DNA of 64,000 nt from Bacteroidales bacterium. Lineage in GTDB: Bacteria; Bacteroidota; Bacteroidia; Bacteroidales; FEN-979. Position 1 is the stretch's first letter. Each line of letters starts with the position of its first letter. The stretch spans positions 13,005-77,004 of the forward strand of contig JALNWE010000001.1 in NCBI GenBank assembly GCA_023231065.1, written 5' to 3'. Positions 18,301 through 46,147 of the stretch are shown in pieces. Both the position numbers and the translations under genes were made by a program. The notes under the pieces are model-generated. The model did no database searches, was not told where the DNA came from, and saw only the letters and a list, made by a program, of their open reading frames with translations.

Positions 18301-18318
18301 TTGTTATTTAATTAACAA
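18301..18318. promoter_or_regulatory. Rex-operator-like palindrome TTGTTATTTAATTAACAA
   Basis: 13/14 half-site match to TTGTTAA-N4-TTAACAA. Lies just upstream of and overlapping the -33 region of the putative hydC1 promoter. Confidence 0.55.
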
Positions 18319-18328
18319 ATATAAATGA

Positions 18329-18336
18329 TAAATTTG
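18329..18336 (+). promoter_or_regulatory. Bacteroidota -7 box TAAATTTG
   Basis: Matches TAnnTTTG and sits between the two Rex-like boxes, 82 bp upstream of hydC1. Confidence 0.35.
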
Positions 18337-18346
18337 CTTTGAATTT

Positions 18347-18364
18347 CTGTTAATATTTTCACAA
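18347..18364. promoter_or_regulatory. Rex-operator-like palindrome CTGTTAATATTTTCACAA
   Basis: Half-sites cTGTTAA / TTCACAA with a 4-nt spacer, 54 bp upstream of the hydC1 ATG. Confidence 0.5.
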
Positions 18365-18417
18365 TTCGTTTTTATTTGTTATAAATTATTATATATCATT
18401 AACTTAAAATATTCATT

Positions 18418-18882
18418 ATGACAGAGTGCCAGGAATTAATTAAAGAATTGGCAGACAAATATGGCCGGGAAAGAGCCAGTCTGCTACCCATACTTCAGGG
18501 GGTTGTCGAGAAAAATAATTACATCTCAGACACTTGCATGACTGATATTGCAAAGGAGCTTGATCTTTCTGCTGCCCAGGTATATGGAACAGCTACTTTT
18601 TATTCCTTTCTGGATACAGAACCAAGAGGAAAATATGTCATCCGGGTATGTAAGACGATAACATGCGATATGCATGGAAAGAAAATGATCATCCAGACCC
18701 TGGAAGATATGCTTAAAATAAAGGTCGGAGAAACCACCCCGAATAAGAAATTTACCTTACTCGAAACCAATTGTCTTGGTTGGTGCCATGAAGGGCCTGC
18801 CATGCTTATTAATGAAAAGCCCTTCAGTGGATTGACAACTGAAAAGGTGCATGACATCATCAGTGAATATATCAATAAATAA
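18418..18882 (+). CDS. hydC: [FeFe]-hydrogenase NuoE-like [2Fe-2S] subunit (locus 1)
   Basis: 154 aa. Thioredoxin-like 2Fe-2S Cys pattern VCKTITCD...NCLGWCHEGP. Confidence 0.9.
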   Translation: MTECQELIKELADKYGRERASLLPILQGVVEKNNYISDTCMTDIAKELDLSAAQVYGTATFYSFLDTEPRGKYVIRVCKTITCDMHGKKMIIQTLEDMLKIKVGETTPNKKFTLLETNCLGWCHEGPAMLINEKPFSGLTTEKVHDIISEYINK

Positions 18883-20105: not shown

Positions 20106-21899
20106 ATGTCAAAAAAAATAAATCTCACCATTGACGGCATTAAAGTTTCGGTTGACGAAGGGATGACGATCCTTGAAGCCGCCCGGACGCTTAACATTCA
20201 CATTCCGACCCTGTGTTATCATGAAGACCTTTGTGTGGCCGGTAACTGCCGCGTTTGCGTGGTAGAACAGGAAAAAGTTAAAAACCTTCCGGCATCCTGT
20301 GCCATGCCTGTAGCCGAAGGAATGATTATCCATACCAACAGTATGAAAGTACGTATGGCCAGAAAACATATTGTTGAACTGTTGTTGTCGGAGCACAACG
20401 CGGATTGTACAAAATGTTATAAAAATGGAAATTGTGAACTTCAAGGATTAGCTTCACAAATGCTTACAGGCGATCATCTGTTCCTTGACCTCGTACCGGA
20501 TAAGAATTATACGATCGATATGTTTAATACGGCCATCGTCAAGGATGATAGTCGTTGTATACGCTGTCAGCGTTGTGTAAGGACTTGTGAGGAGTTGCAG
20601 AGTGTCAGCGCCCTGGGGGTCGCATATAAAGGGGATAAAATGAAAATTTCGACTTTCTTTGAACATCCTCTCTTTGAAGTAGTATGCACAAACTGCGGTC
20701 AATGTGTTAACCGTTGTCCGACCGGCGCTTTAATCGAACGTAATTATATTGACCAGGTATGGGATGCCATTTATGATCCGACCAAACACGTTGTTGTACA
20801 AACTGCACCAGCTGTTCGAATTGCACTTGGAGAAGCTTTAGGGCTGGCTCCTGGAAAAATTGTGACGGGAAAAATGGTCGCAGCGCTGAAGCGTCTTGGA
20901 TTTGATTCGGTTCTTGATACAGACTTTACAGCCGACCTTACCATCATTGAAGAGGGTCATGAACTTCTTACAAGGTTGAAGGGCGCCCTTGTTGATAAAG
21001 ACCCCACGGTAGCATTACCGATGGCAACCTCCTGCTCTCCCGGTTGGATTAAATTCATCGAACATACTTTCCCTGAATATCTCGCCAACCTTTCTACCTG
21101 CAAATCACCGCAGCAAATGTTCGGGGCCCTGGCCAAAACTTATTACGCGCAAAAACGCAAAATCGATCCTAAAAATATTGTTTCGGTTTCCATCATGCCA
21201 TGCACCGCAAAAAAATTCGAAGCAAACAGACCTGAGATGCGTTCGAGTGGTTATAAAGATGTTGATTATGTGCTGACCACCCGTGAACTCGGAATTATGA
21301 TCAAACAAGCCGGATTGGAATTTGAAGGTTTACCGGAAGAAAAGTTTGATAGTTTCATGGGGGCTTCAACCGGCGCTGCTGTTATTTTCGGATCAACCGG
21401 CGGCGTTATGGAAGCTGCCCTCCGTACCGTTTACGAAGTTGTTACCGGCAGGGAAGTACCTTTCGATGGATTGAATATCGTACCCGTCCGTGGAACTGAA
21501 GGGGAAATCCGCGAAGCTACTATCAGAATCGAAAAAGTGAAACCTGAATGGAGTTTCCTGGAAGGCGTTGATCTGAATTGTGTGGTTGCCAATGGATTAG
21601 CTAATGCAAAAAAAGTTATGCAAAACGTTAAAGACGGAAAGGCAAATTACCACTTTATCGAGATCATGGCTTGTCCGGGTGGATGTTTGGGCGGCGGGGG
21701 CCAACCAATTCCGACCAATAAAGATATCCGTTCAAAACGTAAATCGGCAATTTACGAAGAAGATATGGGGATGCCCATCAGAAAATCGCATGAAAACCCC
21801 GAGGTTGCTGCAATCTATGAAGAATTTCTTGAAAAACCTTTAGGCCATAAATCTCATGAGTTACTTCATACTCATTATACACCACGAAAGAGGTACTAA
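20106..21899 (+). CDS. hydA: [FeFe]-hydrogenase catalytic subunit (locus 1), variant P1 motif
   Basis: 597 aa. N-terminal 2Fe-2S (CYHEDLCVAGNCRVC), HNADC, two CxxCxxCxxxCP, P1 TSCSPGW (not TSCCP), P2 MPCTAKKFE, P3 EIMACPGGCLGGGGQP and a C-terminal small-subunit-like tail. Confidence 0.92.
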   Translation: MSKKINLTIDGIKVSVDEGMTILEAARTLNIHIPTLCYHEDLCVAGNCRVCVVEQEKVKNLPASCAMPVAEGMIIHTNSMKVRMARKHIVELLLSEHNADCTKCYKNGNCELQGLASQMLTGDHLFLDLVPDKNYTIDMFNTAIVKDDSRCIRCQRCVRTCEELQSVSALGVAYKGDKMKISTFFEHPLFEVVCTNCGQCVNRCPTGALIERNYIDQVWDAIYDPTKHVVVQTAPAVRIALGEALGLAPGKIVTGKMVAALKRLGFDSVLDTDFTADLTIIEEGHELLTRLKGALVDKDPTVALPMATSCSPGWIKFIEHTFPEYLANLSTCKSPQQMFGALAKTYYAQKRKIDPKNIVSVSIMPCTAKKFEANRPEMRSSGYKDVDYVLTTRELGIMIKQAGLEFEGLPEEKFDSFMGASTGAAVIFGSTGGVMEAALRTVYEVVTGREVPFDGLNIVPVRGTEGEIREATIRIEKVKPEWSFLEGVDLNCVVANGLANAKKVMQNVKDGKANYHFIEIMACPGGCLGGGGQPIPTNKDIRSKRKSAIYEEDMGMPIRKSHENPEVAAIYEEFLEKPLGHKSHELLHTHYTPRKRY

Positions 21900-21954: not shown

Positions 21955-21984
21955 AAAAAGCCACCGCCAAAAAATTGACGGTGG
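21955..21984 (-). terminator. hairpin terminator for the minus-strand gene
   Basis: CCACCG/CGGTGG stem with a 12-nt loop, followed on the minus strand by CTTTTT. Confidence 0.45.
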
Positions 21985-22028: not shown

Positions 22029-22871
22029 TTACATTTTTTGAGGGTTCTCTCCAGGTTTGGAAGGAGCTTCGGGCGTTTCAACCTTAGGCGCCTTTCCGGT
22101 ATCATCTTTCTTGGTCCTGATAATGACCTTTACATCTTTAGGGTTTCTGTCCATATACCGGTATCTGCCCATATCATTAGGCCTTTCCCTGTATATGATC
22201 CGCTCCTGCTTTTCAATAATCGGGGAATCATCGACATCAATAATAATTCGTTTTCCTCCCTTCCTATCTTTAATGGAATAACTTTTTACTTTATCCAGGG
22301 GAATATCCCCGATTATATCAGAAACCGTTTCCTGTGGGTTTAACATACGTTGCCTCTGAGCGCCCTGACCCGGGAACCAATTGCCACATTCCATATCTTT
22401 TAACATTTCAGGTGGTGTGGGGCAATCCGGGATACATGGAAAATTAAATCCAAATGAATTTCCGCGACCACTCTTAGGCATTTTCATACCCGGGCAACAG
22501 GCTCCTGGCATCATCCTCATCGCTTTTTTAACGATCTTATGAACAGAATCGGATAAAAGTGAATCAGGGATATCAAAATTTATTTCGAATTGCATTTCTT
22601 TCATTTCTTCAGATAATTCTTTCATTTCATCATTCATTCCTTCAACCATTGCTTCAATTTCTTCCTTTTCTAATAATTCGTCGGAAACGATAGTCGTGTC
22701 GAAAACAGAAGTTTCTCCATTTTTCTCACTCACAATTTTAAGTTTGATTGTTGATTTTGATTTGTTTGTCGCAGTTTCCTGTGAATAAACCGGAAGGAAA
22801 ATGAAAATACTCAGAATCATTGCCATTCCCGACACAAAATATTGAATTTTATTATCAGATAAAAGTTTCAT
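22029..22871 (-). CDS. secreted hypothetical protein with a Met/Cys-rich central segment
   Basis: 280 aa. N-terminal signal/TM, acidic coiled segment, MRMMPGACCPGMKMP and CIPDCPTPPEMLKDMECG, and a basic C-terminus. No family recognised. Confidence 0.6.
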   Translation of the reverse strand: MKLLSDNKIQYFVSGMAMILSIFIFLPVYSQETATNKSKSTIKLKIVSEKNGETSVFDTTIVSDELLEKEEIEAMVEGMNDEMKELSEEMKEMQFEINFDIPDSLLSDSVHKIVKKAMRMMPGACCPGMKMPKSGRGNSFGFNFPCIPDCPTPPEMLKDMECGNWFPGQGAQRQRMLNPQETVSDIIGDIPLDKVKSYSIKDRKGGKRIIIDVDDSPIIEKQERIIYRERPNDMGRYRYMDRNPKDVKVIIRTKKDDTGKAPKVETPEAPSKPGENPQKM

Positions 22872-22929: not shown

Positions 22930-22966
22930 GTTAATGAATCGTTAAAATTGGTTAATGAATCGTTAA
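22930..22966. promoter_or_regulatory. 2 x 16-bp perfect direct repeat GTTAATGAATCGTTAA (21-bp period)
   Basis: Copies at 22930-22945 and 22951-22966 give four GTTAA pentamers at 10-11 bp spacing in the divergent intergenic region next to an OmpR-family two-component operon. Confidence 0.55.
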
Positions 22967-23005: not shown

Positions 23006-24949
23006 ATGAAAAAAAGGTTGCTGTATTTTCTGATCGCAGGTATTTGTATCTCCCTGATCGGGATAATTATAGTCCAATTTTTCTGGATCCGGAACGCTTT
23101 CAACATCAAAGAATCGCAATTTGACCGTGGTGTCAATGAAGCGTTGGGAAGCGCTGTCAATAAAATTGAGACCAGGGAAAATATGTATTTCATCAGCCGG
23201 AATTTTGAAGGGGACAGCATTATGTCAATTGTTCAGGCTTTTACTAAAGACACTTCACAGATCATCATGGAGCGTTTGAATTCCCTCCTCGCTTCCAATG
23301 AGCTTCAACCTTGTAAAGAAAAGGAATGTCCGGCAAATCAGCCGTTCCTCCCCTCTTCCCCATCCCCACCCAGGCAACGAAGAGAAGTTATCCATTATTC
23401 CTACCAATACAATTTCACTCCTTTGCAGTCCGAGATGGACAGTATTTCAAAGCAAATGGAACAATTCATGAAGGAATTTCCAGATGCTCGTTTGAATACT
23501 TTTAGTTTTGAATGGAATGACCAGTTAGCACAACTGGATTCTATTTTTGAAAAGGGACGTGGATCTTATCGATTTCAGGAAGAGATGCCGAATGATTTGG
23601 TTATAACAAACCTGGAAGGGGAAGTCATCGTGGAGGCGCCTGATCCTCGCGGATCCAATTTCATCCGTTACCGTATGCCACAGGTAATGGATCCAAGAAT
23701 AGTATATCATCGTCCCCAAAATCAGGCCCGTAGAAAGCAGTTAAAAGAAAACAGCATACAGAAGCTGGATAACAAAGCAAATAAAATCAAGGATGTTATT
23801 AAAAAGATGGCTATTGAACTGGAGACCAAACCTGCTCCGGTTCAACAACGCATCAATAAAAAAAATCTTCAGGCCACACTCAGTAAAGCTTTTGCCGATA
23901 AAGGGATTGATCTTCCCTTTGAATTTGCAGTCTATTCCCCATCCAACGACAGCAATCCGATACCGATCAGGTCCGCTGGTTTTGTAAAAGAAAACCAGTC
24001 CACATCACACCGTGTTTCCCTTTTCCCCGATGATCTATTTCAGAAACCGGATCTTTTGCTTGTCTTTTTCCCGGATCAGAAAACCCATGTATTGAAATCA
24101 TTGTCACTTTTACTTTTTGGATCCATTCTCTTCACGCTCATCATTGGCCTTACCTCCGGTGCAAGCATTGTAGTAATGATCAGGCAAAAGAAGATCTCCG
24201 ACATTAAAACCGATTTCATCAATAACATGACCCATGAGTTCAAGACACCCATCGCGACCATCTCAATCGCGGCTGATTCCATCAATAATCCCCGCGTGAT
24301 AGGAGAACCGGATACCATTAAAAATTTCACGCGGATCATCAAGGAAGAAAACAACCGGATGAATGCGCGCGTAGAGCAGGTATTACAAATGGCCATGCTG
24401 GACAGCCGTGATTTCCATTTGCGGCTTCATGTTGTCGATATGAATTTATTGATCGAAAGATCGGTCGATCACTTCAGGCTCCAGATAGAAAAACGTGATG
24501 GGGTTATCCGTACATTACTGGAAGCGACCAATCCCTTTGCTGAGGTTGACGAAGATCACATACTGAATGTTTTACTTAACCTTTTGGATAATTCGAATAA
24601 ATATTCGTTGACGAAACCGGAAATAGATGTTTTTTCATTTAACCGTTCCGGAAAAATTTATTTCGGAGTACAGGATAAAGGACTGGGAATGAGCGCAGAA
24701 ACCCAACGGAAGGTATTTGATAAATTCTTCCGGGTGACATCGGGGAACATCCATAATATCAAAGGATTCGGGCTTGGGTTGAGTTATGTCAAGGCAATCG
24801 TACTGGCACATCATGGTGAAATTCGTATTTCCAGTGAAGTGGGAAAAGGGAGCCGTTTTGAAATCTGTCTCCCTGCCCTATCAAAAAGTACGCTGGAAGA
24901 CGAAGGCATTATCGTGGATGGTGAGACAAACATAGGGTCAGAGCTGTAA
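23006..24949 (+). CDS. sensor histidine kinase with periplasmic sensor domain
   Basis: 647 aa. Two TM helices flanking a ~330-aa loop, HisKA H-box MTHEFKTPIATI, HATPase_c N/G1/G2 boxes. Confidence 0.9.
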   Translation: MKKRLLYFLIAGICISLIGIIIVQFFWIRNAFNIKESQFDRGVNEALGSAVNKIETRENMYFISRNFEGDSIMSIVQAFTKDTSQIIMERLNSLLASNELQPCKEKECPANQPFLPSSPSPPRQRREVIHYSYQYNFTPLQSEMDSISKQMEQFMKEFPDARLNTFSFEWNDQLAQLDSIFEKGRGSYRFQEEMPNDLVITNLEGEVIVEAPDPRGSNFIRYRMPQVMDPRIVYHRPQNQARRKQLKENSIQKLDNKANKIKDVIKKMAIELETKPAPVQQRINKKNLQATLSKAFADKGIDLPFEFAVYSPSNDSNPIPIRSAGFVKENQSTSHRVSLFPDDLFQKPDLLLVFFPDQKTHVLKSLSLLLFGSILFTLIIGLTSGASIVVMIRQKKISDIKTDFINNMTHEFKTPIATISIAADSINNPRVIGEPDTIKNFTRIIKEENNRMNARVEQVLQMAMLDSRDFHLRLHVVDMNLLIERSVDHFRLQIEKRDGVIRTLLEATNPFAEVDEDHILNVLLNLLDNSNKYSLTKPEIDVFSFNRSGKIYFGVQDKGLGMSAETQRKVFDKFFRVTSGNIHNIKGFGLGLSYVKAIVLAHHGEIRISSEVGKGSRFEICLPALSKSTLEDEGIIVDGETNIGSEL

Positions 24950-24976
24950 AAATGAACAGTGCAAAGAAATAAAACC

Positions 24977-25675
24977 ATGAATCAAAGGATAAAAATTCTG
25001 TTGGTCGAAGATGATCCAAATTTTGGTTCAATCATGAAATCATATTTGGAATTAAATGATTTTGATGTGATTTTAAAGATTGATGGGAAACAAGGATTGG
25101 CTACCTTTAAAACCATGGTTTTTGATATTTGTATCCTCGATGTGATGATGCCCGAAATGGATGGTTTTACTTTAGCCAGGGAGATAAAGAAGATCAACAG
25201 CCAGGTACCACTAATTTTTCTCACCGCCAAATCGCTGAAAGAAGATATGTTGGAGGGGTTTAAAACAGGTGCGGATGATTATATAACAAAACCATTTGAT
25301 TCTGAGGTTCTTCTGTTTAAACTTAGGGCGATTTTAAAAAGGAACAGCCAAAAAAGTGAAGCGGAAAACGATTTTATCAGCATCTCCATCGGAAAGCTAC
25401 AATTCAACTTTGCGCTCCGTACATTAGCGTTAGACGAACAAGTTCAACAACTTTCCCCAAAGGAGGCAATGCTTTTGAAAATGCTGGTCACATCAAAAGA
25501 AGGTATCCTGTCACGGAAAAATGCCCTGGAAAAAATCTGGGGTTCCGACAACTATTTCAATGGCCGTAGTATGGATGTCTTTATAGCCCGGTTAAGAAAA
25601 TATCTGAAAGCAGACCCTTCTATTGAAATTGCAAATATTCACGGGAACGGTTTCCGTTTAATTGTTACACGGTAA
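24977..25675 (+). CDS. OmpR/PhoB-family response regulator
   Basis: REC (ILLVEDD..ILDVMMP..K) plus a winged-helix C-terminus. Start moved to the ATG at 24977. Confidence 0.9.
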   Translation: MNQRIKILLVEDDPNFGSIMKSYLELNDFDVILKIDGKQGLATFKTMVFDICILDVMMPEMDGFTLAREIKKINSQVPLIFLTAKSLKEDMLEGFKTGADDYITKPFDSEVLLFKLRAILKRNSQKSEAENDFISISIGKLQFNFALRTLALDEQVQQLSPKEAMLLKMLVTSKEGILSRKNALEKIWGSDNYFNGRSMDVFIARLRKYLKADPSIEIANIHGNGFRLIVTR

Positions 25676-25786: not shown

Positions 25787-25821
25787 TTGTGAATTTATTC
25801 ACATTGTGAATATTTTAACAA
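25787..25821. promoter_or_regulatory. two abutting Rex-operator-like palindromes
   Basis: TTGTGAATTTATTCACAT (25787-25804) and TTGTGAATATTTTAACAA (25804-25821) share one base (17-bp register). Each has one half-site mismatch to TTGTGAA-N4-TTCACAA. Confidence 0.65.
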
Positions 25822-25882: not shown

Positions 25883-26227
25883 ATGAAGGTACAAGAAGTC
25901 GTAAAATTGATCAATGGGACAGTCATGACAGGGAATAAAAACCCGGAAGTGACTGTTGATGTTGCTTTTGCTTCGGATCTGATGAGCGACGTCCTTACCA
26001 TTAAAGCAGAGAATCTTTTATTATTAACCGGTTTGGTTAATATTCAGGCGATCCGGACTGCTGAGATGTCAGACATTTCCTGTATTGTTTTTGCAAGGAA
26101 CAAAAATGTAACAGAAGAAATGATCCGCCTGGCTGAAGAGAATGGCATTACAGTCATTGAGAGCCCATACTCATTATTCCGTATCAGCGGGATTCTGTTC
26201 ATTGCGGGAATGGCTCCTGTATATTAA
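25883..26227 (+). CDS. DRTGG domain protein (copy 1)
   Basis: 114 aa. ASDLMSDVL...LLLTGL..IRTA...IVF pattern of the DRTGG domain. Confidence 0.78.
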   Translation: MKVQEVVKLINGTVMTGNKNPEVTVDVAFASDLMSDVLTIKAENLLLLTGLVNIQAIRTAEMSDISCIVFARNKNVTEEMIRLAEENGITVIESPYSLFRISGILFIAGMAPVY

Positions 26228-26238: not shown

Positions 26239-26655
26239 ATGCATTTTGAATATTTTATAGAAGGAGGAAATTTTGCAGAGGCCGGTTCAACATCAAGCCA
26301 GGTTAAAAAAACATTAAAACAATTAAATGTGGATGGGACGGTGATCAAACGGACTGTGGTAGCGTTATATGAGGCTGAGGTAAATATAGTTGCCCATGCT
26401 TACAGCGGGAAGATCACGGTTGAGCTGGACGAGGAAAAAATAGACATTAAGATAGTGGATGAAGGCCCCGGAATCCCTGATATTAAAAGAGCCATGGAAA
26501 TAGGATATTCCACTGCTTCGCCCGAAGTGAGGGAAATGGGTTTCGGCGCCGGAATGGGTTTATCTAACATGAAGAATAATTCAGATAAATTAAATATAAC
26601 CAGTACGGTCGGAAAAGGAACTGAGGTGGAGATAATCAATTATTTTCACCTTTAA
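26239..26655 (+). CDS. RsbW/SpoIIAB-like GHKL ATPase (putative Ser/Thr kinase)
   Basis: 138 aa. N box EAEVNIVAHA, G1 DEGPGI, G2 GFGAGMGL. No HisKA domain. Confidence 0.8.
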   Translation: MHFEYFIEGGNFAEAGSTSSQVKKTLKQLNVDGTVIKRTVVALYEAEVNIVAHAYSGKITVELDEEKIDIKIVDEGPGIPDIKRAMEIGYSTASPEVREMGFGAGMGLSNMKNNSDKLNITSTVGKGTEVEIINYFHL

Positions 26656-28054: not shown

Positions 28055-28074
28055 AAATATCAGGAGGAATTACC

Positions 28075-29181: not shown

Positions 29182-29239
29182 AAAAAAGTTAATAGAAGAA
29201 CAATAAAATTTTACCATTTTTGCAGTGAAAGATTTAGCA

Positions 29240-38167: not shown

Positions 38168-38168
38168 A

Positions 38169-40118
38169 ATGTCAGCTTCAACCACCTTAAAGATTACAGA
38201 ATTTCTTGTTGAGAAGGTCGTAAAAAACTATTCGGGTTTTTATGATAAGGGAACTGCCGAGTTGCTTGCTCAGATAAAAAGGGAAAAAGTGACGCGCCCG
38301 GTCATTTATATAGGGATGGGGACTTGCGGTTTGGTTGCAGGAGCAGGTAAAACCATGAAAGCAGTTGAAAACTACCTGGAGGAAAACAAGCTGGATGCAG
38401 AAATAATCAAGGTTGGCTGCATCGGGCTCTGCTCTGCTGAACCAATCATGGATGTTCAATTACCTGGTAAGGCCCGGATTTCTTTTCAACATGCCACCGA
38501 AGAAAAGGTCGAAGACTTGCTGAATGCTGTTTTTCATCATACTCTGATGCACGACAATTCCCTGGGGCAATACCGTTTCTCCTCTCATGAGGATTGGCCT
38601 GGTTTACCTTATATTGAACAACTTCCATTTTTCGCTTCCCAGCGCAGGATTGTATTGCGAAATGCCGGGATTATTTCGCCTTTATCCATTCATGATTACA
38701 TGGCACGGGGTGGGTACAGGTCATTGTTCAAAACCGTTCTTAATTATACCCCTGAAAAGGTTTGTGAGATCATAGATCAGAGTGAATTAAGAGGACGCGC
38801 CGGCGGAGGGTACCCTACCGGTAAAAAATGGTTGGTCGCTTTGAATACTGGCAGCGATCAGAAATACCTTATTTGTAATGCTGACGAGAGTGATCCAGGC
38901 GCTTATATGGATCGGACACTTCTGGAAGGGGATCCTCACAGGGTGATCGAAGGGATGGCCATTGCAGCATATGCAATCGGAGCAAACAAAGCATTTATTT
39001 ACCTTAGGTCAGATTACAAGCAATCCATACTCCTGCTTCAACATGCATTACTGGAAGCCAGAACATGCGGTTTTTTAGGAGAAAATATTTTTGGGAGTGG
39101 GTTTAACCTGAGCGTTTTTATCCGCCAGGGCGCAGGCGCTTTTGTATGTGGTGAAGAGACCGCCCTGATATCGAGTCTCGAAGGAAGTCGCGGCATTCCT
39201 CATGAAAAACCCCCCTTTCCAGCTGAGAAGGGGTTGTTGGGACATCCTACCATTGTTAACAATGTTGAAACACTTGCCAATATACCACCCATTCTTGAAA
39301 ATGGCCCTTCATGGTTCAAAGCCATCGGTAAAAAAGGCAGCACCGGTACGAAAGTGATCTGCATCACCGGGAATGGGGTTCATACGGGTGTGGTAGAGAT
39401 TCCTATGGGAATAAAAATTTCGGATATTGTCTATTCCATCGCCGGAGGCATAAAAAATGATAAAAAACTGAAAGCCGTTCAGCTTGGAGGTCCGGCTGGC
39501 ATCTGCATTCCGCCCAAAGACCTGGATGTAGAAATAGGATATGATTCTTTGGAGGAGATCGGAGCCTCAACGGGTTTAGGAGGGCTTATCATTCTTGATG
39601 AAGATACCTGCATGGTAAATTTATCTAAATATTTTATGGATTTTCTACAAAAGGAAAGTTGTGGTAAGTGTATTCCCTGCCGTGAAGGAACAAAAAGAAT
39701 GTTGGAGATACTGGAAGGGATTACACGTCGGCCAAAAGAAGAGAGTTCGCATGAAACCCTTGAAAGGTTTAAAGGTGTTGTTCAACTGGAGAATCTGGCA
39801 GAAGTGATCAGGGATACTTCGTTATGTGGTTTGGGCCAGAATGCCTCAAACCCAGTTCTTTCAAGCCTTAAATGGTTCAGGGAAGAATATGAAGAACACA
39901 TCTTTGACAGGAAATGTCAGGCAGGCGTTTGTCATGATCTCAGGACTTTTTACATCGATGTTGAACTATGCAACGGATGCAATGTGTGTCAGAAAAAATG
40001 TCCTGAAAATGCCATCATTGGCTCCGTTAAGATGCCTCATTTCATCATCGAATCAAAATGTACCGGATGCGGAATCTGTTTTGACAGTTGTAAGTTCAGT
40101 GCGATCTATTTTAAATAA
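38169..40118 (+). CDS. hydB: NuoF-like flavoprotein subunit with extended N-terminal 2Fe-2S domain (locus 3)
   Basis: 649 aa. N-terminal GMGTCGLVAGAGKT...VGCIGLCSAEP, ELRGRAGGGYPTGKKW, ESCGKCIPCREG and a C-terminal 2x CxxCxxCxxxC. Confidence 0.93.
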   Translation: MSASTTLKITEFLVEKVVKNYSGFYDKGTAELLAQIKREKVTRPVIYIGMGTCGLVAGAGKTMKAVENYLEENKLDAEIIKVGCIGLCSAEPIMDVQLPGKARISFQHATEEKVEDLLNAVFHHTLMHDNSLGQYRFSSHEDWPGLPYIEQLPFFASQRRIVLRNAGIISPLSIHDYMARGGYRSLFKTVLNYTPEKVCEIIDQSELRGRAGGGYPTGKKWLVALNTGSDQKYLICNADESDPGAYMDRTLLEGDPHRVIEGMAIAAYAIGANKAFIYLRSDYKQSILLLQHALLEARTCGFLGENIFGSGFNLSVFIRQGAGAFVCGEETALISSLEGSRGIPHEKPPFPAEKGLLGHPTIVNNVETLANIPPILENGPSWFKAIGKKGSTGTKVICITGNGVHTGVVEIPMGIKISDIVYSIAGGIKNDKKLKAVQLGGPAGICIPPKDLDVEIGYDSLEEIGASTGLGGLIILDEDTCMVNLSKYFMDFLQKESCGKCIPCREGTKRMLEILEGITRRPKEESSHETLERFKGVVQLENLAEVIRDTSLCGLGQNASNPVLSSLKWFREEYEEHIFDRKCQAGVCHDLRTFYIDVELCNGCNVCQKKCPENAIIGSVKMPHFIIESKCTGCGICFDSCKFSAIYFK

Positions 40119-40125: not shown

Positions 40126-41847
40126 ATGCAATTTGATATTGAGATCAACGATGAACATGTAACCGCAAAAAGGGGAGAAACGATAAAAAACGTTTTAGAC
40201 CGTATCGGGATCAAAGTACCGACATTGTGTTACATGAATGGATTTTCACCCACGGGAAGCTGTAGAATGTGTGTTGTGGAAGTAGATGGGATACCAGGGC
40301 TCGTTCCTTCCTGTTCTCATCTTGTTGAGGAGTGGATGAAGATAAAAACACATTCCCCACGCGTAATCAAAGCCAGAAAAACCCTGATTGAACTTTTGTT
40401 AGCCAGTCATCCAAATGATTGTCTTTATTGTGAAAAAAACGGTCAATGTGAACTTCAGGTTCTTGCGTCAGAGCTTCAGGTAAGGGAGCGAAAATATCAA
40501 TCGAAAAGGACTCCCATTCAAATTGATAAAATTTGTCCAAGTATTGAGCGGGATCCTGCAAAATGTGTCCTATGTGAAAGGTGTGTCAGGGTTTGCAATG
40601 AGATCATCGGGGTTGGCGCCATTGACATAATCGGCCGTGGAAGCGAGAGCCGTATTGGTACCACCTATAACAAAGGATTGAATGTTAAAGCCTGTGTAAA
40701 ATGCGGACAATGTATTCAGGTATGTCCAACGGGGGCATTAACAGAAAAACAGTCTTTTCAGGCTGTGATGGAAGCCCTGAATAAACCCGGACTTTTCCCC
40801 GTACTACAGTTTTCGCCCACAGTCCCAGCTGCTATTGCTGAGGAATTCAATCTGAAAACGAATAAAGATGTGCTAAACCTGTTAAGGGCCGCTTTAAAAA
40901 AGATGGGATTTCGCCAGGTATTTGATACTTCCATGGCAGCTGATCTGAACATCATGGAAGAGGCAGCTGAGTTCATCGACCGTTTAAAAAGCCAAAAAGA
41001 TCTTCCACTTTTTACATCTTGTTGCCCATCATGGGTTCATTTTGTCGAAGCGCTCAGGCCCGGATTTCTGCCAAAACTCTCTACCACCTTGCCCCCTCAG
41101 CAGATCATGGGTAGGCTTATCAAGCAGTATATTACCAGCTCGGCCGGGCAAAAGCCAGAGGATGTATATGTTGTCTCTGTGATGCCATGTACTGCTAAGA
41201 AAGATGAAGCAGGAAAAGATTATCTAAAGGATTCGGAAACCCGTTTTGTTGATGCAGTAATCACAACCCGTGAGTTAATCAAGATGATCCGGTTGATGGG
41301 CATCGATTTTTCAGGATTAGAGCCTGAGCCCAATGACTCTTCTTTTAGCATCAGGAGTTCTGCCAGTAAACTCTTTGGAGTTGCAGGAGGTCATCTTGAA
41401 GGTTTGATCAGAACCATTCACTTCAACCTTACAGGTCAGGAACTGTCACCATTAAAACTAACAGATTTAAGAGGTCTCAAAACCAGAAAAGAAACGAGGA
41501 TCAGACTTGGCAAGCAATTGATTAATGTGGTTTCAGTCAGTGGATTGGCCAACATTAAATCCATTCTTGATGAAATTGAAGCAGGTAAGGGAGATGTCCA
41601 TATCATTGAGGTCATGGCTTGTCCTTATGGATGCATTAACGGTGGAGGTCAGCCAAAAGGGAGTGATGAAAAGAGTTTAAAAGGAAGGATGAAAGTAATT
41701 TACGATGTTGATGAAGAAGAAATCATCAAAGTGGCTCATAAAAATCCGATTATGACTGGTTTATATGAAAAATTTCTTGACAGGCCCAACAGCGACAGAA
41801 ATAAAGAATTACTTCATGTTTTACGCAATTCAATCGAAATCCAATGA
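40126..41847 (+). CDS. hydA: [FeFe]-hydrogenase catalytic subunit (locus 3)
   Basis: Start at the ATG at 40126, after the hydB stop. P1 TSCCPSW, P2 MPCTAKKDE, P3 EVMACPYGCINGGGQP. Confidence 0.93.
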   Translation: MQFDIEINDEHVTAKRGETIKNVLDRIGIKVPTLCYMNGFSPTGSCRMCVVEVDGIPGLVPSCSHLVEEWMKIKTHSPRVIKARKTLIELLLASHPNDCLYCEKNGQCELQVLASELQVRERKYQSKRTPIQIDKICPSIERDPAKCVLCERCVRVCNEIIGVGAIDIIGRGSESRIGTTYNKGLNVKACVKCGQCIQVCPTGALTEKQSFQAVMEALNKPGLFPVLQFSPTVPAAIAEEFNLKTNKDVLNLLRAALKKMGFRQVFDTSMAADLNIMEEAAEFIDRLKSQKDLPLFTSCCPSWVHFVEALRPGFLPKLSTTLPPQQIMGRLIKQYITSSAGQKPEDVYVVSVMPCTAKKDEAGKDYLKDSETRFVDAVITTRELIKMIRLMGIDFSGLEPEPNDSSFSIRSSASKLFGVAGGHLEGLIRTIHFNLTGQELSPLKLTDLRGLKTRKETRIRLGKQLINVVSVSGLANIKSILDEIEAGKGDVHIIEVMACPYGCINGGGQPKGSDEKSLKGRMKVIYDVDEEEIIKVAHKNPIMTGLYEKFLDRPNSDRNKELLHVLRNSIEIQ

Positions 41848-43826
41848 GTCATTCTTATCACCGGCAGTTGGTTTTTACCATCAAGGAAAGATGCAGGGTT
41901 TGCTTTACCTGTGTAAGGGAATGTCCGGTAAAGGCCATTAAAATTATCAATGGCCAGGCTGAAGTTCTCAATGAGCGGTGCATTGGATGCGGGAATTGCG
42001 TCAAGGTTTGTAGCCAGGGTGCAAAAATCCCCCTGAATTCAGTCAATGAAGTGGAAGAAATGTTAGCATCTGATCATCTCATCGCGGCTTGCATTGCCCC
42101 CAGTTTTCCAGCTGAGTTTGAGGAAATTAAAGATCACCGGGTCATTGTTGGCATGGTACGGAAGCTTGGTTTCGATTTTGTTACGGAAGTTTCTTTTGGC
42201 GCTGATCTCGTAGCGCAAGCTTATGAAAAGAGACTTAAAAATGAACAGAAAGGAGGGGATATTTCTTCAGATTGTCCTGCCATTGTATATTTTATTCGTC
42301 AGTATAACCCCGATTTAGTCCCTTATCTTGCTCCTATTGCCTCCCCTATGGTTGCCATGACGCGGGTAATGAAAAAAAAACATGGGGCTGGTTTGAAGGT
42401 TGTTTTTATTGGACCTTGTTTCGCCAAAAAAGCAGAAACAGAAGAGGTGGATGAAGTATTGACCTTCAGGGAGCTCCGTGGAATGTTGCAGAAACGTAAT
42501 ATCTCTCCTGAAAACATTACCCCGTCTGAGTTTGATCCTCCATATAGCAGTAAGGGCGCCATTTTTCCTATAAGCCGGGGCCTCTATTATACTTCCAACA
42601 GTCAGGAAGCAATACCGGAAGAACATGTAGTGATAGCTGAAGGCCGAATTAACTTTAAGGAAGCCGTCAAGGAATTTGAAGATGGTTTTATCCGCGACAA
42701 GCACCTGATGCTACTTTGCTGTGAAGGATGTATCATGGGGCCCGGAACATCACCCGGAGGAAAACGGTTTTCACGCAGTGCGGCCGTCGGGGAATATGTC
42801 GGGAAAAAAATGCAGAATATTGACATGGAAACCTGGCAACGGGATATTGATTTTTACAGTGACATCGATCTTTCACAAAGTTTCAATCCAGAAGATCGCC
42901 GGCTCGGACCTGCCTCCAACGAAGATGTATTACAGGCGCTTCATGAAATGGGAAAGTTTACCGAGAAGGATCATCTGAATTGCGGGGCCTGTGGTTATGA
43001 TACATGCGTTGAGCATGCGACTGCCATTGTGCAGCGATTAGCTGAAACAGAGATGTGCCTACCATATACCATTGAAAAGTTACATGATTCGATCAATGAT
43101 CTTAATATTTCCAATGAAAAGCTTGCCCATGCGAAAGCAGCCTTAAAACAATCTGAGAAATTGGCCCACATGGGACAGCTTTCAGCCGGCATCGCCCACG
43201 AGTTGAATAACCCGCTGGGTGTTATTACCATGTACAGCAACATTTTAATGGATGAGGCCCCTGAAGGCGCTGCAGTCCGGGAGGATCTCAAACTGATCGT
43301 AGAACAAGCCGACCGGTGTAAAAAAATTGTCAGTGGTTTGTTAAACTTTGCCCGAAAGAACCAGGTGAATTTATCGGAGACGGATGTCGTAAAATTTCTC
43401 AACCACAGTGTCAATTCCATTATTAAGCCCGACAATATTACGATAACGGTTATACCCAACATCCAGGATCCCGTTGCTTTTCTTGATATTGATCAGATGA
43501 TGCAGGTTTTAACCAACCTTGAAAAGAATGCCATTGAAGCCATGCCCAATGGCGGATCGTTAACGGTCAGTGTAGAAGGGAATAAAGAGGAGGTTATTTT
43601 TATTGTGAAGGATACCGGAACAGGAATAGCGAAGGAATATATGGACAAACTTTTTACCCCGTTTTTTACCACCAAGGAGATGGGGAAAGGCACGGGGCTC
43701 GGGCTTGCCCTGATATATGGGATTGTCAAGATGCACAAAGGAAAGATCCACGTTGATTCCAATGATGATCCAGCCGCCGGACCCACCGGATCCACGTTCA
43801 GAATAACCGTACCGAGGGGCAGATGA
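41844..43826 (+). CDS. sensory [FeFe]-hydrogenase-like domain fused to a histidine kinase
   Basis: 660 aa. ATGA overlap with hydA3. Ferredoxin motifs, ISSDCPAIV / IGPCFAKK / LCCEGCIMGPG, CGACGYDTC-x16-C, then HisKA H-box IAHELNNPLG and HATPase_c (DTGTGI, GTGLGL). Confidence 0.88.
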   Translation: MSHSYHRQLVFTIKERCRVCFTCVRECPVKAIKIINGQAEVLNERCIGCGNCVKVCSQGAKIPLNSVNEVEEMLASDHLIAACIAPSFPAEFEEIKDHRVIVGMVRKLGFDFVTEVSFGADLVAQAYEKRLKNEQKGGDISSDCPAIVYFIRQYNPDLVPYLAPIASPMVAMTRVMKKKHGAGLKVVFIGPCFAKKAETEEVDEVLTFRELRGMLQKRNISPENITPSEFDPPYSSKGAIFPISRGLYYTSNSQEAIPEEHVVIAEGRINFKEAVKEFEDGFIRDKHLMLLCCEGCIMGPGTSPGGKRFSRSAAVGEYVGKKMQNIDMETWQRDIDFYSDIDLSQSFNPEDRRLGPASNEDVLQALHEMGKFTEKDHLNCGACGYDTCVEHATAIVQRLAETEMCLPYTIEKLHDSINDLNISNEKLAHAKAALKQSEKLAHMGQLSAGIAHELNNPLGVITMYSNILMDEAPEGAAVREDLKLIVEQADRCKKIVSGLLNFARKNQVNLSETDVVKFLNHSVNSIIKPDNITITVIPNIQDPVAFLDIDQMMQVLTNLEKNAIEAMPNGGSLTVSVEGNKEEVIFIVKDTGTGIAKEYMDKLFTPFFTTKEMGKGTGLGLALIYGIVKMHKGKIHVDSNDDPAAGPTGSTFRITVPRGR

Positions 43827-43908
43827 CCATTGACCATTGACCATTGACTATTGACTATTGACCATTGACTATTGACTATTGACCATTTGACTATTGACCA
43901 TTTGACTA
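43824..43908. repeat. 12-unit heptanucleotide tandem array TGACYAT starting on the TGA stop codon
   Basis: Units TGACCAT x3, TGACTAT x2, TGACCAT, TGACTAT x2, TGACCAT, T, TGACTAT, TGACCAT, T, TGACTA. It fills most of the 105-bp intergenic gap. Confidence 0.95.
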
Positions 43909-43930
43909 ACATATTAAAACAATCAGCAAG

Positions 43931-44335
43931 ATGAAACCGGGGAATGTGACAATTTTAATTGTGGATGATGATCAGGATTATCTGTTCCAGCTACAATCAA
44001 AAATTCAAAAATTTGGCTTTGAAACCATCACGGCAGATAGCCAGAAAGAAGCCGAGGAATTGATCGAAAAAATCAAGCCTGATCTTGCTATCCTTGATCT
44101 GATGATGGAGAACGAAGACAGCGGGTTCATCCTCTGCTACAAGATGAAAAAGAAGTACCCGGACGTACCGATTATTATTGCAACAGGGGTTATGGCGGAA
44201 ACGGGAATCAATTTTGATATCAATGACGAAAATAACCGTAAGTGGATTAAAGCTGATTGTTTCCTTGACAAGGGTATCCGTACGGAACGTCTAAAAGAAG
44301 AAATTGACAAATTGCTTATGAAATCCAAAACGTGA
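43931..44335 (+). CDS. single-domain response regulator (REC only)
   Basis: 134 aa. ILIVDDD...AILDLMM...T..K receiver signature with no output domain. Confidence 0.88.
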   Translation: MKPGNVTILIVDDDQDYLFQLQSKIQKFGFETITADSQKEAEELIEKIKPDLAILDLMMENEDSGFILCYKMKKKYPDVPIIIATGVMAETGINFDINDENNRKWIKADCFLDKGIRTERLKEEIDKLLMKSKT

Positions 44336-44381
44336 CCAGAAATTTTCGATTTTCCAAATATTTTGACCTGAATTCACCAAT

Positions 44382-45515
44382 ATGTCAACATTAAAAATTC
44401 TTGTTGTAGATGACGAACCCGGCATACGCAGCGGTGTCACACGGATATTAAGAAATTTCAGGGTTGACTACCCTTTTATGGATGAAGCCTTTGATTTTGA
44501 AGTCTTAGAAGCTTCGACGGGGGAAGAAGGAATAGAGATCATAGAAAATAACCTCCCTGATATTTTACTTCTCGACAATAAATTGCCAGGCATCCAGGGC
44601 ATTGAGGTCCTTGAATACATAAAAAAGAAGCAGAAGAACATTATCGTTGTTATGATAACTTCTTATGCTTCCCTGGAACTGGCTGTAAAAGCGACCAGCG
44701 ATGGGGCTTATGATTTTATCCCGAAACCATTTACGCCCCAGGAGTTGAAGTCATCGATAGAAAACATCACCAAGCGCGTTTTTCTTAAAAAGATGACCAA
44801 TAAATTACAGGATACAGGAAAGCAAATCAGGTTTACTTTTTTATCATTATTATCGCATGAATTAAAAGCGCCGCTTAATGCCATTGAAGGATATCTAAAG
44901 ATGATCAAAGAGCGGCAACAGGGCCCAAAAATCGAAGATTATGATGTGATGATCGACCGGTCGCTTGACCGTATCAAAGGGATGCGTAGCCTCATCCTTG
45001 ACCTTCTGGACCTGACGCGGGTTGAATCCGGTAAAACCAAACGAGATATAACAGATGTTGATTTGGTCCAGATTGCAAGGACCGCCATGGATACCATGCG
45101 ACCTTACGCGATACAACGGGACGTAAAACTGGTTTTACATGGGGTGTCACCCCTGATGCTTCAGGCAGATGCAGAGGAAATTGAAATTATTTTCAACAAC
45201 CTCATTTCCAATGCAATAAAATACAACAAGGATGGAGGGACCGTTGATTGTACCATTGAGAGGGCAGATAGTTTTATGGTGATCAAAGTGGTTGACACAG
45301 GCATAGGAATGAGCCAGGCTGAAATCGAAAAGATCTTTGAAGATTTTGTAAGGATTAAAAACGAAAAAACAAAAAACATATCAGGAAGCGGATTGGGTTT
45401 GCCTATTGTTAAAAAATTCATTGATGAATATTCGGGAAAAATAGAAGTAAGCAGTGTCCCGGATCAAGGAAGTACCTTTACAGTAACTTTACCAATTGAA
45501 AAACCATGTTTATAA
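44382..45515 (+). CDS. REC-HisKA-HATPase_c hybrid kinase
   Basis: 377 aa. ILVVDDE..LLLDNKLP receiver, H-box LSHELKAPLNAI, DTGIGM and GSGLGL. Confidence 0.88.
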   Translation: MSTLKILVVDDEPGIRSGVTRILRNFRVDYPFMDEAFDFEVLEASTGEEGIEIIENNLPDILLLDNKLPGIQGIEVLEYIKKKQKNIIVVMITSYASLELAVKATSDGAYDFIPKPFTPQELKSSIENITKRVFLKKMTNKLQDTGKQIRFTFLSLLSHELKAPLNAIEGYLKMIKERQQGPKIEDYDVMIDRSLDRIKGMRSLILDLLDLTRVESGKTKRDITDVDLVQIARTAMDTMRPYAIQRDVKLVLHGVSPLMLQADAEEIEIIFNNLISNAIKYNKDGGTVDCTIERADSFMVIKVVDTGIGMSQAEIEKIFEDFVRIKNEKTKNISGSGLGLPIVKKFIDEYSGKIEVSSVPDQGSTFTVTLPIEKPCL

Positions 45516-46147
45516 GAAATTTACCTCATAAGACAGTGGAGCGGTTGAGCCAATATCGCCGTTCTTTGCTGATGATCCTTTCCAAAGAGAAAACCCATGT
45601 ATTTTCCCATGAAATTGCCCAGATGCTGCATATCACCCCGGTTCAGGTACGAAGGGACCTGATGCTGATCGGATATTCCGGAAATCTGAGAAAAGGTTAT
45701 GATATCAGGGAGTTGATCGAACTGATAGGAAAAATCATAGACTCTGAGAAAGGCCAGCGTGTAGCGGTTGTCGGGCTTGGAAATTTAGGAAAGGCAATGA
45801 TCAGCTATTTTAAAGGTAAACGATCTAAACTCACTATCATTGCTGCTTTTGATATAAATCCGGAAAAAATAAACCGCGTCTATGACGGTGTTGCTTGCTA
45901 TCATGTCAATCAGATGACAGATATCATCAAGCAAAACAATATTTCGATCGGAATTGTATCTGTTCCGTCGGAGCAAGCCCCTGAGATTGCTGAGACCCTT
46001 GTATTGGCTGGCATCAAAGGCATTCTCAATTTCACCCCAAAGCCGCTTAATGTGCCGCCTTATGTATATCTCGAAGAATACGACATGATCACATCACTTG
46101 AAAAGGTTGCTTTCTTCGCAAAGAAAAATGATGAACGTTTTAAGTAG
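45506..46147 (+). CDS. rex: redox-sensing transcriptional repressor Rex
   Basis: 213 aa. N-terminal wHTH (ERLSQYRRSL...ITPVQVRRDL), Rossmann VVGLGNLGKA, AGIKGILNFTP. The ATG lies 10 nt inside the preceding kinase gene. Confidence 0.9.
   Translation: MFIRNLPHKTVERLSQYRRSLLMILSKEKTHVFSHEIAQMLHITPVQVRRDLMLIGYSGNLRKGYDIRELIELIGKIIDSEKGQRVAVVGLGNLGKAMISYFKGKRSKLTIIAAFDINPEKINRVYDGVACYHVNQMTDIIKQNNISIGIVSVPSEQAPEIAETLVLAGIKGILNFTPKPLNVPPYVYLEEYDMITSLEKVAFFAKKNDERFK

Follow-up and report, generated by a model that had tools for sequence, protein, structure and literature searches.

Positions 18301-46147 of a 64-kilobase (kb) stretch of DNA from a Bacteroidales bacterium (GenBank assembly GCA_023231065.1, contig JALNWE010000001.1; the whole 64,000-nucleotide (nt) stretch is hereafter the window) hold a conserved cluster of hydrogen-metabolism genes. 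We consider it probable that this cluster specifies three NADH-linked hydrogenases of two kinds, placed under the control of Rex, an NADH/NAD+-sensing repressor, together with three sensor-like proteins (S1, S2 and S3) that adjust the enzymes.

An earlier note on this DNA had counted six proteins with an [FeFe]-hydrogenase H-domain, and the Pfam family Fe_hyd_lg_C is indeed found in all six (Table 1), with scores of 272-321 bits in three long proteins and 82-150 bits in three short ones. The long proteins carry N-terminal 2Fe-2S, NuoG-type 4Fe-4S and ferredoxin domains. Each is adjoined by NuoE-like (PF01257) and NuoF-like (PF01512/PF10589) genes, in the orders C-B-A, Fd-B-A-C and C-B-A; the three loci are designated HydCBA1, HydABC2 and HydCBA3. 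The signalling neighbours previously listed for the short proteins were also recovered: DRTGG, GHKL, DRTGG, PHP and GHKL proteins around S1, a SpoIIE-type PP2C phosphatase 3′ of S2, and HisKA and HATPase domains fused to S3. The cluster is closed by rex, whose product passes the NCBIfam model NF003995 (200.5 bits against a cut-off of 126) and combines a winged helix (PF06971) with a Rossmann domain (PF02629) and the motif GLGNLG. Gene calls derive from an open reading frame (ORF) listing and Pfam/NCBIfam scans, the domain content covering all 25 genes. Operons are delimited by tight gene junctions and overlaps. In the run from the first DRTGG gene to hydC2, which comprises the S1 module and HydABC2, neighbouring genes overlap by as much as 4 nt and are separated by no more than 71 nt; the start of S3 overlaps the hydA3 stop by 4 nt and the start of rex overlaps the hybrid kinase gene by 10 nt.

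Relatives were collected by scanning one genome per GTDB species with an alignment of the S2 family. The best 80 of the 189 found were analysed; they are almost all Bacteroidales/Bacteroidota metagenome-assembled genomes (MAGs), several of them labelled Prolixibacteraceae, Draconibacterium or Lentimicrobiaceae, and the host of the window is close to Prolixibacteraceae and Draconibacterium-like MAGs. ORFs of the 80 loci were matched to the window proteins by BLASTP, and modules were counted in those loci long enough to hold them. The genes proved to be conserved together: the core, made of PP2C-S2 and the divergent HydCBA3-S3-receiver-hybrid kinase-Rex, is found in many Bacteroidales genomes wherever the locus extends far enough. 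HydC3 with HydB3 is present in 71 of 71 loci, S3 in 61 of 61, PP2C in 70 of 70 and Rex in 50 of 53, and the block from S2 to Rex is invariant down to 54% S2 identity. HydA2 with HydB2 occurs in 31 of 53 loci and the S1 module in 11 of 50. The complete gene order recurs in another species-level MAG (loci L083 and L004; S2 81% identical), where, as in the window, one end is flanked by transketolase and truA genes and the other by ribF and a metallo-β-lactamase (MBL)-fold gene. In a third lineage the S1 module is found and HydCBA1 is missing. In L083, a gene with a Por_Secre_tail domain (a type IX secretion signal; 17698-18762), absent from the window, lies between hydC2 and PP2C.

The segment had previously been termed an island. 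As a description of a mobile unit the term does not hold, since the GC content is uniform (0.39-0.45), and flat across the window, and the flanks are housekeeping genes conserved in the other species-level genome. No integrase, transposase or tRNA gene was found at the cluster borders, and the core is universal in the clade. The density of paralogous functions and the patchy occurrence of the S1 and HydCBA1 modules among relatives would suit a horizontally acquired genomic island of 28 kb, as would the argument, made in PMC11406978, that BfuABC clusters are mobile between phyla; set against the flanks and the universal core, however, such an origin appears very improbable. The cluster is a modular, vertically inherited chromosomal hydrogen-metabolism cluster.

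Three hydrogenases of two kinds

The earlier note ascribed catalytic-type P1, P2 and P3 motifs to all three HydA subunits. This stands for HydA2 and HydA3, which have the M3 architecture and intact P1 (TSCCPxW), P2 (MPCxxKxxE) and P3 (ExMACxxGCxxGGGQP); in HydA1, the P1 motif is TSCSPGW rather than TSCCP. The residue pattern used to recognise a bifurcating HydB consists of Ala or Glu at position 232, Met234, Phe, and GGPSG. HydB2 presents it in full (Ala/Met, Phe, GGPSG) on a NuoF core extended by an N-terminal 2Fe-2S domain and a C-terminal 2x[4Fe-4S] domain, and HydB3 departs from it solely by having GGPAG for GGPSG. HydA3 passes only the NCBIfam group A model TIGR02512 (413.9 bits against 405.95). 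By HydDB group A3 criteria, these features point to HydABC2 and HydCBA3 being electron-bifurcating-type enzymes. A few HydA3 orthologues in the related loci read FTSSCPSW or FTSTCPSW, so that the proton-relay Cys is replaced in an otherwise catalytic-looking subunit.

HydB1 is of another kind. It consists of PF01512 and PF10589 only, lacking both the N-terminal 2Fe-2S and the C-terminal 2x[4Fe-4S] domains, and its best match in the PDB is HoxF (5xf9). Aligned to Thermotoga maritima HydB (7p5h_B), it has Thr82 and Lys84 at the positions of Ala232 and Met234; Tyr is present in GSGAYICGEE and GGASG replaces GGPSG. The marks of a non-bifurcating beta subunit, as defined by Losey et al. (PMC7311640), are the absence of extra Fe-S domains, Thr/Ser at T. 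maritima position 232, Lys/Ser/Ala at 234, a Tyr near the site binding flavin mononucleotide (FMN), and no GGPSG. The "F367" of these authors does not match T. maritima numbering in 7p5h_B, and the Phe/Tyr of GAGAF/YxCGEE was used in its place; HydB1 has Tyr there and also in PPYP. All sequence marks of a non-bifurcating, NADH-dependent [FeFe]-hydrogenase are thus found in HydB1 and none of those of a bifurcating HydB. HydCBA1 probably works with NADH only and does not bifurcate electrons, like Hyd1ABC of Syntrophomonas wolfei.

The P1 motif of HydA1 reads ATSCSPGW in the presence of canonical P2 and P3, and its Ser stands under the second Cys of TSCCP, which we take to be the cubane ligand C300 of CpI. 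The position was read from a gap-free alignment to Thermoanaerobacter kivui HydA1 (PDB 8a6t), and the C300 assignment agrees with the list of four cubane ligands (C115, C170, C362 and C366 in mature CrHydA1 numbering) given by Kertess 2017 (PMC5855289). A sequencing error can be dismissed because TSCSPxW is found in 120 of the 120 closest HydA1 homologue clusters (78-100% identity) and the Ser recurs in two orthologues from other species. TSCSPGW was also seen in Melainabacteria (PMC3787301). In Hydrogenedentota, four of the five sub-types of BfuA commonly have this Ser in P1, a substitution that is uncharacterised (PMC11406978). The equivalent CrHydA1 mutant, C115S, lost its cubane (PMC5855289), which makes it puzzling that a clade that looks catalytic should keep TSCSP so strictly.

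Sensor-like proteins and the active site of S2

As claimed previously, the three short H-domain proteins have the first Cys of P1 replaced (SPFCP in S1, SANCP in S2, SSDCP in S3) and share the C-terminal motif Cx2Cx4Cx16C, which corresponds to Pfam PF04060. According to Land 2020 (PMC8163306), putative sensory [FeFe]-hydrogenases are recognised by a pair of N-terminal 4Fe-4S motifs, an unconserved C299, a replaced M353 and the C-terminal Cx2Cx4Cx16C. These hallmarks are present in S1, S2 and S3, which argues for the earlier designation as putative sensory hydrogenases, and the same published features served for the group assignments made here. All three score far below the NCBIfam group A and monomeric (B1) cut-offs.

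In S1 the motifs SPFCP, ITPC, ACDESCAGG and Cx2Cx4Cx16C are conserved in 120 homologues. The protein has two Fer4 domains, Thr at the M353 position, all four cubane Cys and no PAS hit, a combination typical of group D/M2e (TamHydS type), to which it appears to belong. In HydDB terms it is probably of class C1, the label that HydDB users give to M2e-type proteins, as in Petrimonas mucosa (PMC7768429). Its identity is 24-30% to S2 and S3 and 23-24% to the HydA proteins. Among the matches listed in the homologue search, the window's own S1 was not present and the best match was 74% identical.

S2 and S3 are paralogues that share 40% identity across 448 amino acids (aa). Both have the C299 replacement, Gly at M353, Cx2Cx4Cx16C and a signalling domain characteristic of group C/M2f, and appear to be of group C type. 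S3 (P2 IGPCFAKK, P3 LLCCEGC) keeps all four cubane-ligating Cys and has an intact H-box, HELNNPL. The residues at the C299 position, Phe in S1 and Asp in S3, are conserved within the respective families, and the four cubane Cys together with the P2 lysine are kept across more than 50 S3 and 120 S1 homologues. Immediately 3′ of S3, about 11 tandem heptamers (TGACCAT/TGACTAT; 43824-43902) fill the spacer between its stop codon and the receiver gene. In related species this spacer very often contains a short tandem repeat with a period of 7-9, occasionally longer (a 14-mer in L043), and the unit differs by lineage, being for example GAGTTGGT, GATGTGCT, CACTTAA, CAATGCAAA, GTGAAGA or AATGGTGA. The spacer is a repeat hot spot within an apparent operon.

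S2 departs from these patterns at its active site. Its P2 and P3 motifs read IGPCIATK and FYDEGC (P3 region NMFYDEGCLMGPG). The nearest relatives outside the family read FYCE-GC at P3, and other group C-like proteins ACxGGC or CCxGC; because these outside relatives have Cys there, the Asp of S2 occupies the ligand position equivalent to C499 of CpI. All 80 related loci have Asp or Asn at this position, as do about 118 of 120 homologue clusters. S2 therefore does not have the four cubane-ligating Cys that go with group C/M2f. Lacking one of them as well as the canonical P2 lysine, it may not carry a normal H-cluster, and the presence of a canonical one is doubtful. The CrHydA1 variants C362D and C362S, equivalent to the substitution in S2, still acquire the [2Fe] subcluster, and their slow turnover is biased towards uptake (PMC5855289), a behaviour that would be compatible with S2 acting as a sensor. 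The PAS domain that the earlier note assigned to S2 is weak in the protein itself (PAS_9, E=0.0086) and holds at the family level, where 17-20 of 28 members match PAS families. One representative of the clade, P0242 (full-length, 52% identical to S2), reads ASNDP, IGPD and FYGN--SL and has lost all H-cluster Cys while retaining Cx2Cx4Cx16C: an apparent pseudo-hydrogenase within a sensor clade.

An invariant extra Cys of S2, Cys86, was considered as a compensating ligand and is unsupported, since P0241, P0243, P0245 and P0246 keep the P3 Cys yet have Cys86. An AlphaFold2 model of S2 built from the 28-sequence family alignment (mean predicted local distance difference test score, pLDDT, of 57.8, and below 50 in the P3 region) is too poor to judge Cys86 as a ligand. 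In a distant clade with S2 proteins about 55-60% identical (L057, L058, L060, L063, L066, L068 and L073), S2 is directly preceded, on its own strand, by a small NuoE-like ORF that is 24-30% identical to HydC2.

The features of S2 bear on an alternative explanation, in which H2 would have no part in signalling: instead of sensing H2, the sensor-like proteins, and S2 in particular, would be Fe-S proteins of hydrogenase descent reporting redox or iron-sulfur status, or accessory electron-transfer subunits of the neighbouring HydABC complexes. The Asp/Asn at the cubane position and the missing K358-equivalent Lys of S2 would fit this explanation, as would P0242 with its P1, P2 and P3 Cys gone and the C-terminal cluster motif still in place. 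In PMC11406978, moreover, H-cluster motifs were not found in Hydrogenedentota C1 proteins and the C3 protein is treated as a "T subunit" of BfuABC, and the literature calls the sensory role putative only (PMC8924675). S1 and S3 accord poorly with it, however, as their cubane Cys and P2 lysine are maintained throughout the homologues mentioned above. The relatives TmHydS and TamHydS bind the H-cluster and react with H2 (PMC8163306), even C362D of CrHydA1 acquires the subcluster and is slowly active, and the associations with PAS, PP2C and HisKA argue for signalling rather than bulk electron transfer. On balance we think this explanation unlikely, and sensing of H2 by S1, S2 and S3 stays putative.

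Rex operator-like sites and proposed control of the cluster

The role of Rex is supported by more than the adjacency of its gene, because each of the three hydrogenase loci is preceded by an operator-like pair, and relatives keep these sites. The window was scanned for TTGTGAA-N4-TTCACAA with at most three mismatches; the consensus, TTGTGAAW4TTCACAA, was established for Staphylococcus aureus Rex (PMC2883068) and, being drawn from Firmicutes, may not be that of the host. Twelve matches were obtained against 6.5 expected. Half of them form three pairs, one in each of the three hyd promoter regions (Table 1); when these AT-rich regions were shuffled with dinucleotides preserved, the mean was 0.21 sites and none of 2000 shuffles reached six. 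The pairs preceding the S1-HydABC2 operon and lying between S2 and hydC3 share a 17-base-pair (bp) offset, and each begins exactly 64 nt upstream of a TAnnTTTG box (25851 and 37667, respectively), presumably the Bacteroidetes -7 promoter element. Across the related loci, such matches number 97 in the HydC3-S2 spacer, 32 upstream of Fd2 and 11 in the spacer between the PHP and GHKL2 genes. No Rex-like site was found at up to four mismatches in the window's own PHP-GHKL2 spacer, though relatives have one. L083 has equivalent pairs upstream of hydC1, at similar spacing, and of the first DRTGG gene, the latter being conserved in L083, L085 and L087. Taken together, these computational results argue well for control by Rex of the three hyd loci and, via the hydC3 operon, of its own gene. 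Outside the cluster, one match (53125-53142, three mismatches) sits within an aldehyde dehydrogenase gene (53117-54484), 8 nt from its start, and on weak evidence this gene might plausibly be a further Rex target; another (6818-6835, two mismatches) lies in the spacer between a NusB-like gene and parA.

From these observations we infer the direction of regulation, the sensing and its targets. Because of the operator-like sites and of the behaviour of Rex in Firmicutes and Thermotogae, a high NADH/NAD+ ratio would be expected to release Rex and so derepress all three hyd loci. S1 stands at the head of the HydABC2 operon in the company of a PHP phosphoesterase, two DRTGG proteins and an RsbW-like Ser kinase; S2, with its PAS domain, has the PP2C phosphatase as its partner and diverges from hydC3; S3, with its histidine kinase part, is translationally coupled to hydA3, and the receiver, the hybrid kinase and rex come next. 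Most likely the three proteins report the partial pressure of H2 or how reduced the electron carriers are. Signalling would run by Ser/Thr phosphorylation from S1 and S2 and through a His-Asp relay from S3, and would adjust which of the hydrogenases is produced or active. The NADH-only enzyme would suffice while H2 is low, as was argued for syntroph enzymes (PMC7311640), and the bifurcating enzymes would be needed once it is higher. The choice among three hydrogenase complexes proposed in the earlier note is likewise an inference.

A more daring proposal concerns the S2 clade, which might represent a distinct, Bacteroidota-wide sensor subclass with a natural Asp/Asn for the cubane Cys and a shifted active-site Lys. 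Its H-cluster would be tuned to bind H2 without turnover, or would have been repurposed to another signal; with S3 and Rex it would then form a two-input circuit (H2 and NADH/NAD+) at a single divergent promoter, switching between the NADH-only hydrogenase with Ser at P1 and the bifurcating ones. We regard this proposal as speculative and doubtful.

Co-location could also reflect conserved synteny without shared control, Rex acting globally and each hydrogenase locus having a regulation of its own, unconnected with the other loci or with the sensors beside it. That ribF, the MBL-fold gene and trmD, which are housekeeping genes, follow rex in the same conserved order would agree with such a situation, as would the independent gain and loss of modules (the S1 module and HydABC2, in the proportions given above) and promoter and terminator scans at chance level. 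The sigma-70 promoter scan returned 50 hits against 46.5 expected and the intrinsic-terminator scan 23 against 18.2, both with models unsuited to Bacteroidota. The operator-like pairs preceding all three loci, strongly enriched and conserved in position, speak against it, however, and so do the overlaps joining rex to the kinase gene and S3 to hydA3, and the invariance of the block from S2 to Rex. Independent regulation thus seems improbable to us.

Several points weigh against the interpretation that we favour, a Rex-controlled set of enzymes adjusted by the sensor-like proteins. With Ser at the C300 ligand position, and in view of the C115S result, the activity of HydA1 is not assured. Nowhere has the sensing of H2 by a HydS-type protein been proven (PMC8924675). 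About a third of S2 relatives have Asn instead of Asp; the S2 clade has Thr, Ala or Ser at the K358-equivalent position (Thr in S2 itself), with the Lys shifted one residue later; and the clade may be drifting away from H2 chemistry, a reading that deserves weight because of P0242. Neither S2 nor S3 has a gene for a DNA-binding output domain beside it, and the sole DNA-binding response regulator of the cluster belongs to a periplasm-sensing kinase. Finally, the sites upstream of hydC1 and hydC3 differ from the Firmicute consensus by two to three mismatches.

Table 1. Genes and sequence elements of the cluster (window coordinates)
Feature	Position	Strand	Basis or remark
Rex-operator-like pair, upstream of hydC1	18301-18318 (TTGTTATTTAATTAACAA); 18347-18364 (CTGTTAATATTTTCACAA)		Flanks TAnnTTTG -7-like box at 18329
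HydC1, NuoE-like 2Fe-2S subunit, 154 aa	18418-18882	+	PF01257, E=7.6e-46
HydB1, NuoF core, 388 aa	18907-20073	+	PF01512+PF10589
HydA1, M3-type [FeFe]-hydrogenase subunit	20106-21899	+	Pfam; NCBIfam A6, 873 bits (cut-off 765)
Predicted secreted protein, divergent from kinase-regulator pair	22029-22871	-	N-terminal hydrophobic segment; conserved position
Direct repeat GTTAATGAATCGTTAA x2, exact, 21-bp period	22930-22966		Divergent region, secreted-protein gene and histidine kinase gene
Membrane histidine kinase	23006-24949	+	Pfam; hydropathy
OmpR-family response regulator	24959-25675	+	Pfam
Tandem Rex-operator-like pair, upstream of S1-HydABC2 operon	25787-25821 (starts 25787, 25804)		TTGTGAATTTATTCACAT / TTGTGAATATTTTAACAA; one mismatch each; 17-bp offset
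DRTGG protein, S1 module	25883-26227	+	Pfam
RsbW-like GHKL ATPase, S1 module	26239-26655	+	Pfam
S1 sensor-like hydrogenase	26669-28054	+	Pfam; motifs
Second DRTGG protein, S1 module	28051-28410	+	Pfam
PHP phosphoesterase, S1 module	28410-29153	+	Pfam
GHKL ATPase (GHKL2), S1 module	29225-29779	+	Pfam
Small 2Fe-2S-like protein (Fd2), HydABC2 locus	29795-30199	+	Pfam
HydB2, full bifurcating-type architecture	30218-32011	+	Pfam
HydA2, P1 TSCCPGW	32025-33797	+	Pfam; NCBIfam A6, 902 bits (cut-off 765)
HydC2	33840-34319	+	Pfam
SpoIIE/PP2C-type Ser/Thr phosphatase, directly 3′ of S2	34436-35674	-	PF07228, E=1.1e-14
S2 sensor-like hydrogenase, C-terminal coiled coil and PAS	35643-37520	-	Pfam; motifs
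Tandem Rex-operator-like pair, S2-hydC3 divergent region	37603-37637 (starts 37603, 37620)		17-bp offset
HydC3	37703-38167	+	Pfam
HydB3, bifurcating-type architecture, GGPAG	38169-40118	+	Pfam
HydA3, P1 TSCCPSW	40126-41847	+	Pfam; TIGR02512
S3 sensor-like hydrogenase fused to HisKA and HATPase	41844-43826	+	Pfam; motifs
Stand-alone receiver protein	43931-44335	+	Pfam; conserved 3′ of S3 in related loci
REC-HisKA-HATPase hybrid kinase	44382-45515	+	Pfam; conserved 3′ of S3 in related loci
Rex, NADH/NAD+-sensing repressor	45506-46147	+	PF06971+PF02629; NF003995

The histidine kinase and OmpR-type regulator located between loci 1 and 2 form a pair conserved in that place, directly upstream of the small 2Fe-2S gene in 17 of 50 related loci. 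Hydropathy predicts two transmembrane segments and a periplasmic loop of about 340 aa in the kinase. The divergent secreted-protein gene matched no Pfam family above cut-off. The exact repeat separating it from the kinase gene is a candidate binding, and possibly autoregulatory, site of the OmpR-type regulator. A search at up to three mismatches found no repeat of this type upstream of any hyd operon, leaving a link between the two-component system and the hydrogenases unsupported. At the convergent ends of hydA1 and the secreted-protein gene, a strong hairpin (21961-21984; 10-bp stem, six GC pairs, T-run on the minus strand), the only strong one in the terminator scan, is likely a terminator. 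A search of the cluster against Rfam gave no matches. Past the end of the cluster, ribF (46159-47088; riboflavin kinase/FAD synthetase) starts 11 nt 3′ of rex, a position kept in nearly all related loci; its product makes FMN, the cofactor that HydB uses.

Comparison with known systems

Whether HydS-type proteins sense H2, and how the signal leaves them, is an open question in the field. The present cluster places three sensor-like proteins beside three enzymes of two mechanistic types, behind Rex-type operator-like sites, with three output chemistries: a Ser-kinase/PHP module, PAS with PP2C, and a fused histidine kinase. Its core being conserved in cultured Bacteroidota, it offers a compact natural system for genetics and biochemistry. 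Natural variants that mirror laboratory mutants (Ser at C300 in HydA1, Asp/Asn at C499 in S2) could be informative for H-cluster chemistry. In ecological terms, the arrangement suggests that fermentative anoxic Bacteroidales might match the disposal of reducing equivalents to ambient H2.

Sensor classes C and D are well known beside bifurcating hydrogenases. The author of the earlier note knew of no description of such a density and diversity of sensors in Bacteroidota. This claim is weakened by reports of a two-sensor core (PMC11406978) and of a C1 sensor in P. mucosa (PMC7768429). As to the full set, no description was found in the papers searched of three sensors, three enzymes and Rex together, nor of Rex operator pairs in Bacteroidota or of the missing P3 Cys in the S2 clade.

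A close arrangement is that of the BfuABC/HydABC clusters described in 2024 (PMC11406978), which have two bfuT (group C3) genes and come from the Bacteroidota isolates Perlabentimonas gracilis, Tenuifilum thalassicum and Williamwhitmania taraxaci. As in the S2/HydCBA3-S3 arrangement, one sensor gene lies upstream of bfuC/hydC and another downstream of bfuA/hydA of the same bifurcating-type hydrogenase; one sensor has PAS and the other is fused to a histidine kinase, as are S2 and S3. The authors call the meaning of two sensor genes per cluster unclear. Genomes with several hydrogenase sub-types, non-bifurcating beside bifurcating, are described in the same paper, which, as far as it was read, makes no mention of Rex, Rex operators, a PP2C partner, a receiver or a hybrid kinase, of adjacent second or third hydrogenase loci or a third (M2e) sensor, or of a missing P3 Cys in the upstream sensor. 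P. mucosa ING2-E5A (PMC7768429) has a group C1 "HydA" beside hndABCD, matching the S1 module with Fd2-HydB2-HydA2-HydC2; it differs in having one sensor and one enzyme, with Rex and group C sensors not reported.

The individual sensors have counterparts elsewhere. S1 shares with the TamHydS type (group D/M2e) the absence of PAS, two N-terminal 4Fe-4S motifs, a residue other than Cys at C299, a hydroxyl residue in place of M353 (Thr in S1) and Cx2Cx4Cx16C; in both cases, too, the gene has that of a histidine-kinase-like ATPase at its side and precedes the genes of a trimeric bifurcating hydrogenase. It differs by its Phe at C299, by DRTGG and PHP neighbours rather than an AraC regulator, and by a Bacteroidota instead of a Firmicutes host. 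S2 resembles Ruminococcus albus HydS, T. maritima HydS and T. saccharolyticum HfsB (group C, M2f; PMC6776011, PMC10055695, PMC5707799) in having an H-domain without the relay Cys, Gly at M353, the C-terminal four-Cys motif and PAS, and in R. albus the PAS sensor likewise has an adjacent Ser/Thr phosphatase (PMC6776011). Unlike these proteins, S2 has Asp at the C499-equivalent position and a shifted P2 lysine; it is divergent from a bifurcating hydrogenase, whereas the R. albus sensor is co-transcribed with a ferredoxin-only hydrogenase and adhE.

Among the enzymes, HydB1 is like the corresponding subunit of S. wolfei Hyd1ABC and Syntrophus aciditrophicus HydAB (PMC5626996, PMC7311640) in its lack of extra Fe-S domains, its Thr/Lys and Tyr and the absence of GGPSG. 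Those enzymes also co-occur with bifurcating paralogues in the same genome, as HydCBA1 does, and sub-type II BfuABC of PMC11406978 is a further likeness. HydA1 carries TSCSPGW, while PMC5626996 gives no motifs for the characterised enzymes. Control of hydrogenase genes by Rex is established in Firmicutes (PMC2883068, PMC6391272), and the Rex regulons of Firmicutes and Thermotogae have, as here, a TTGTGAA-N4-TTCACAA-like palindrome upstream of hydrogenase operons; the present sites differ in being paired, in a Bacteroidota host, and rex is here the last gene of a hydrogenase-sensor-kinase operon. Every component of the cluster thus belongs to a described kind, and the whole is a fuller version of arrangements already reported.

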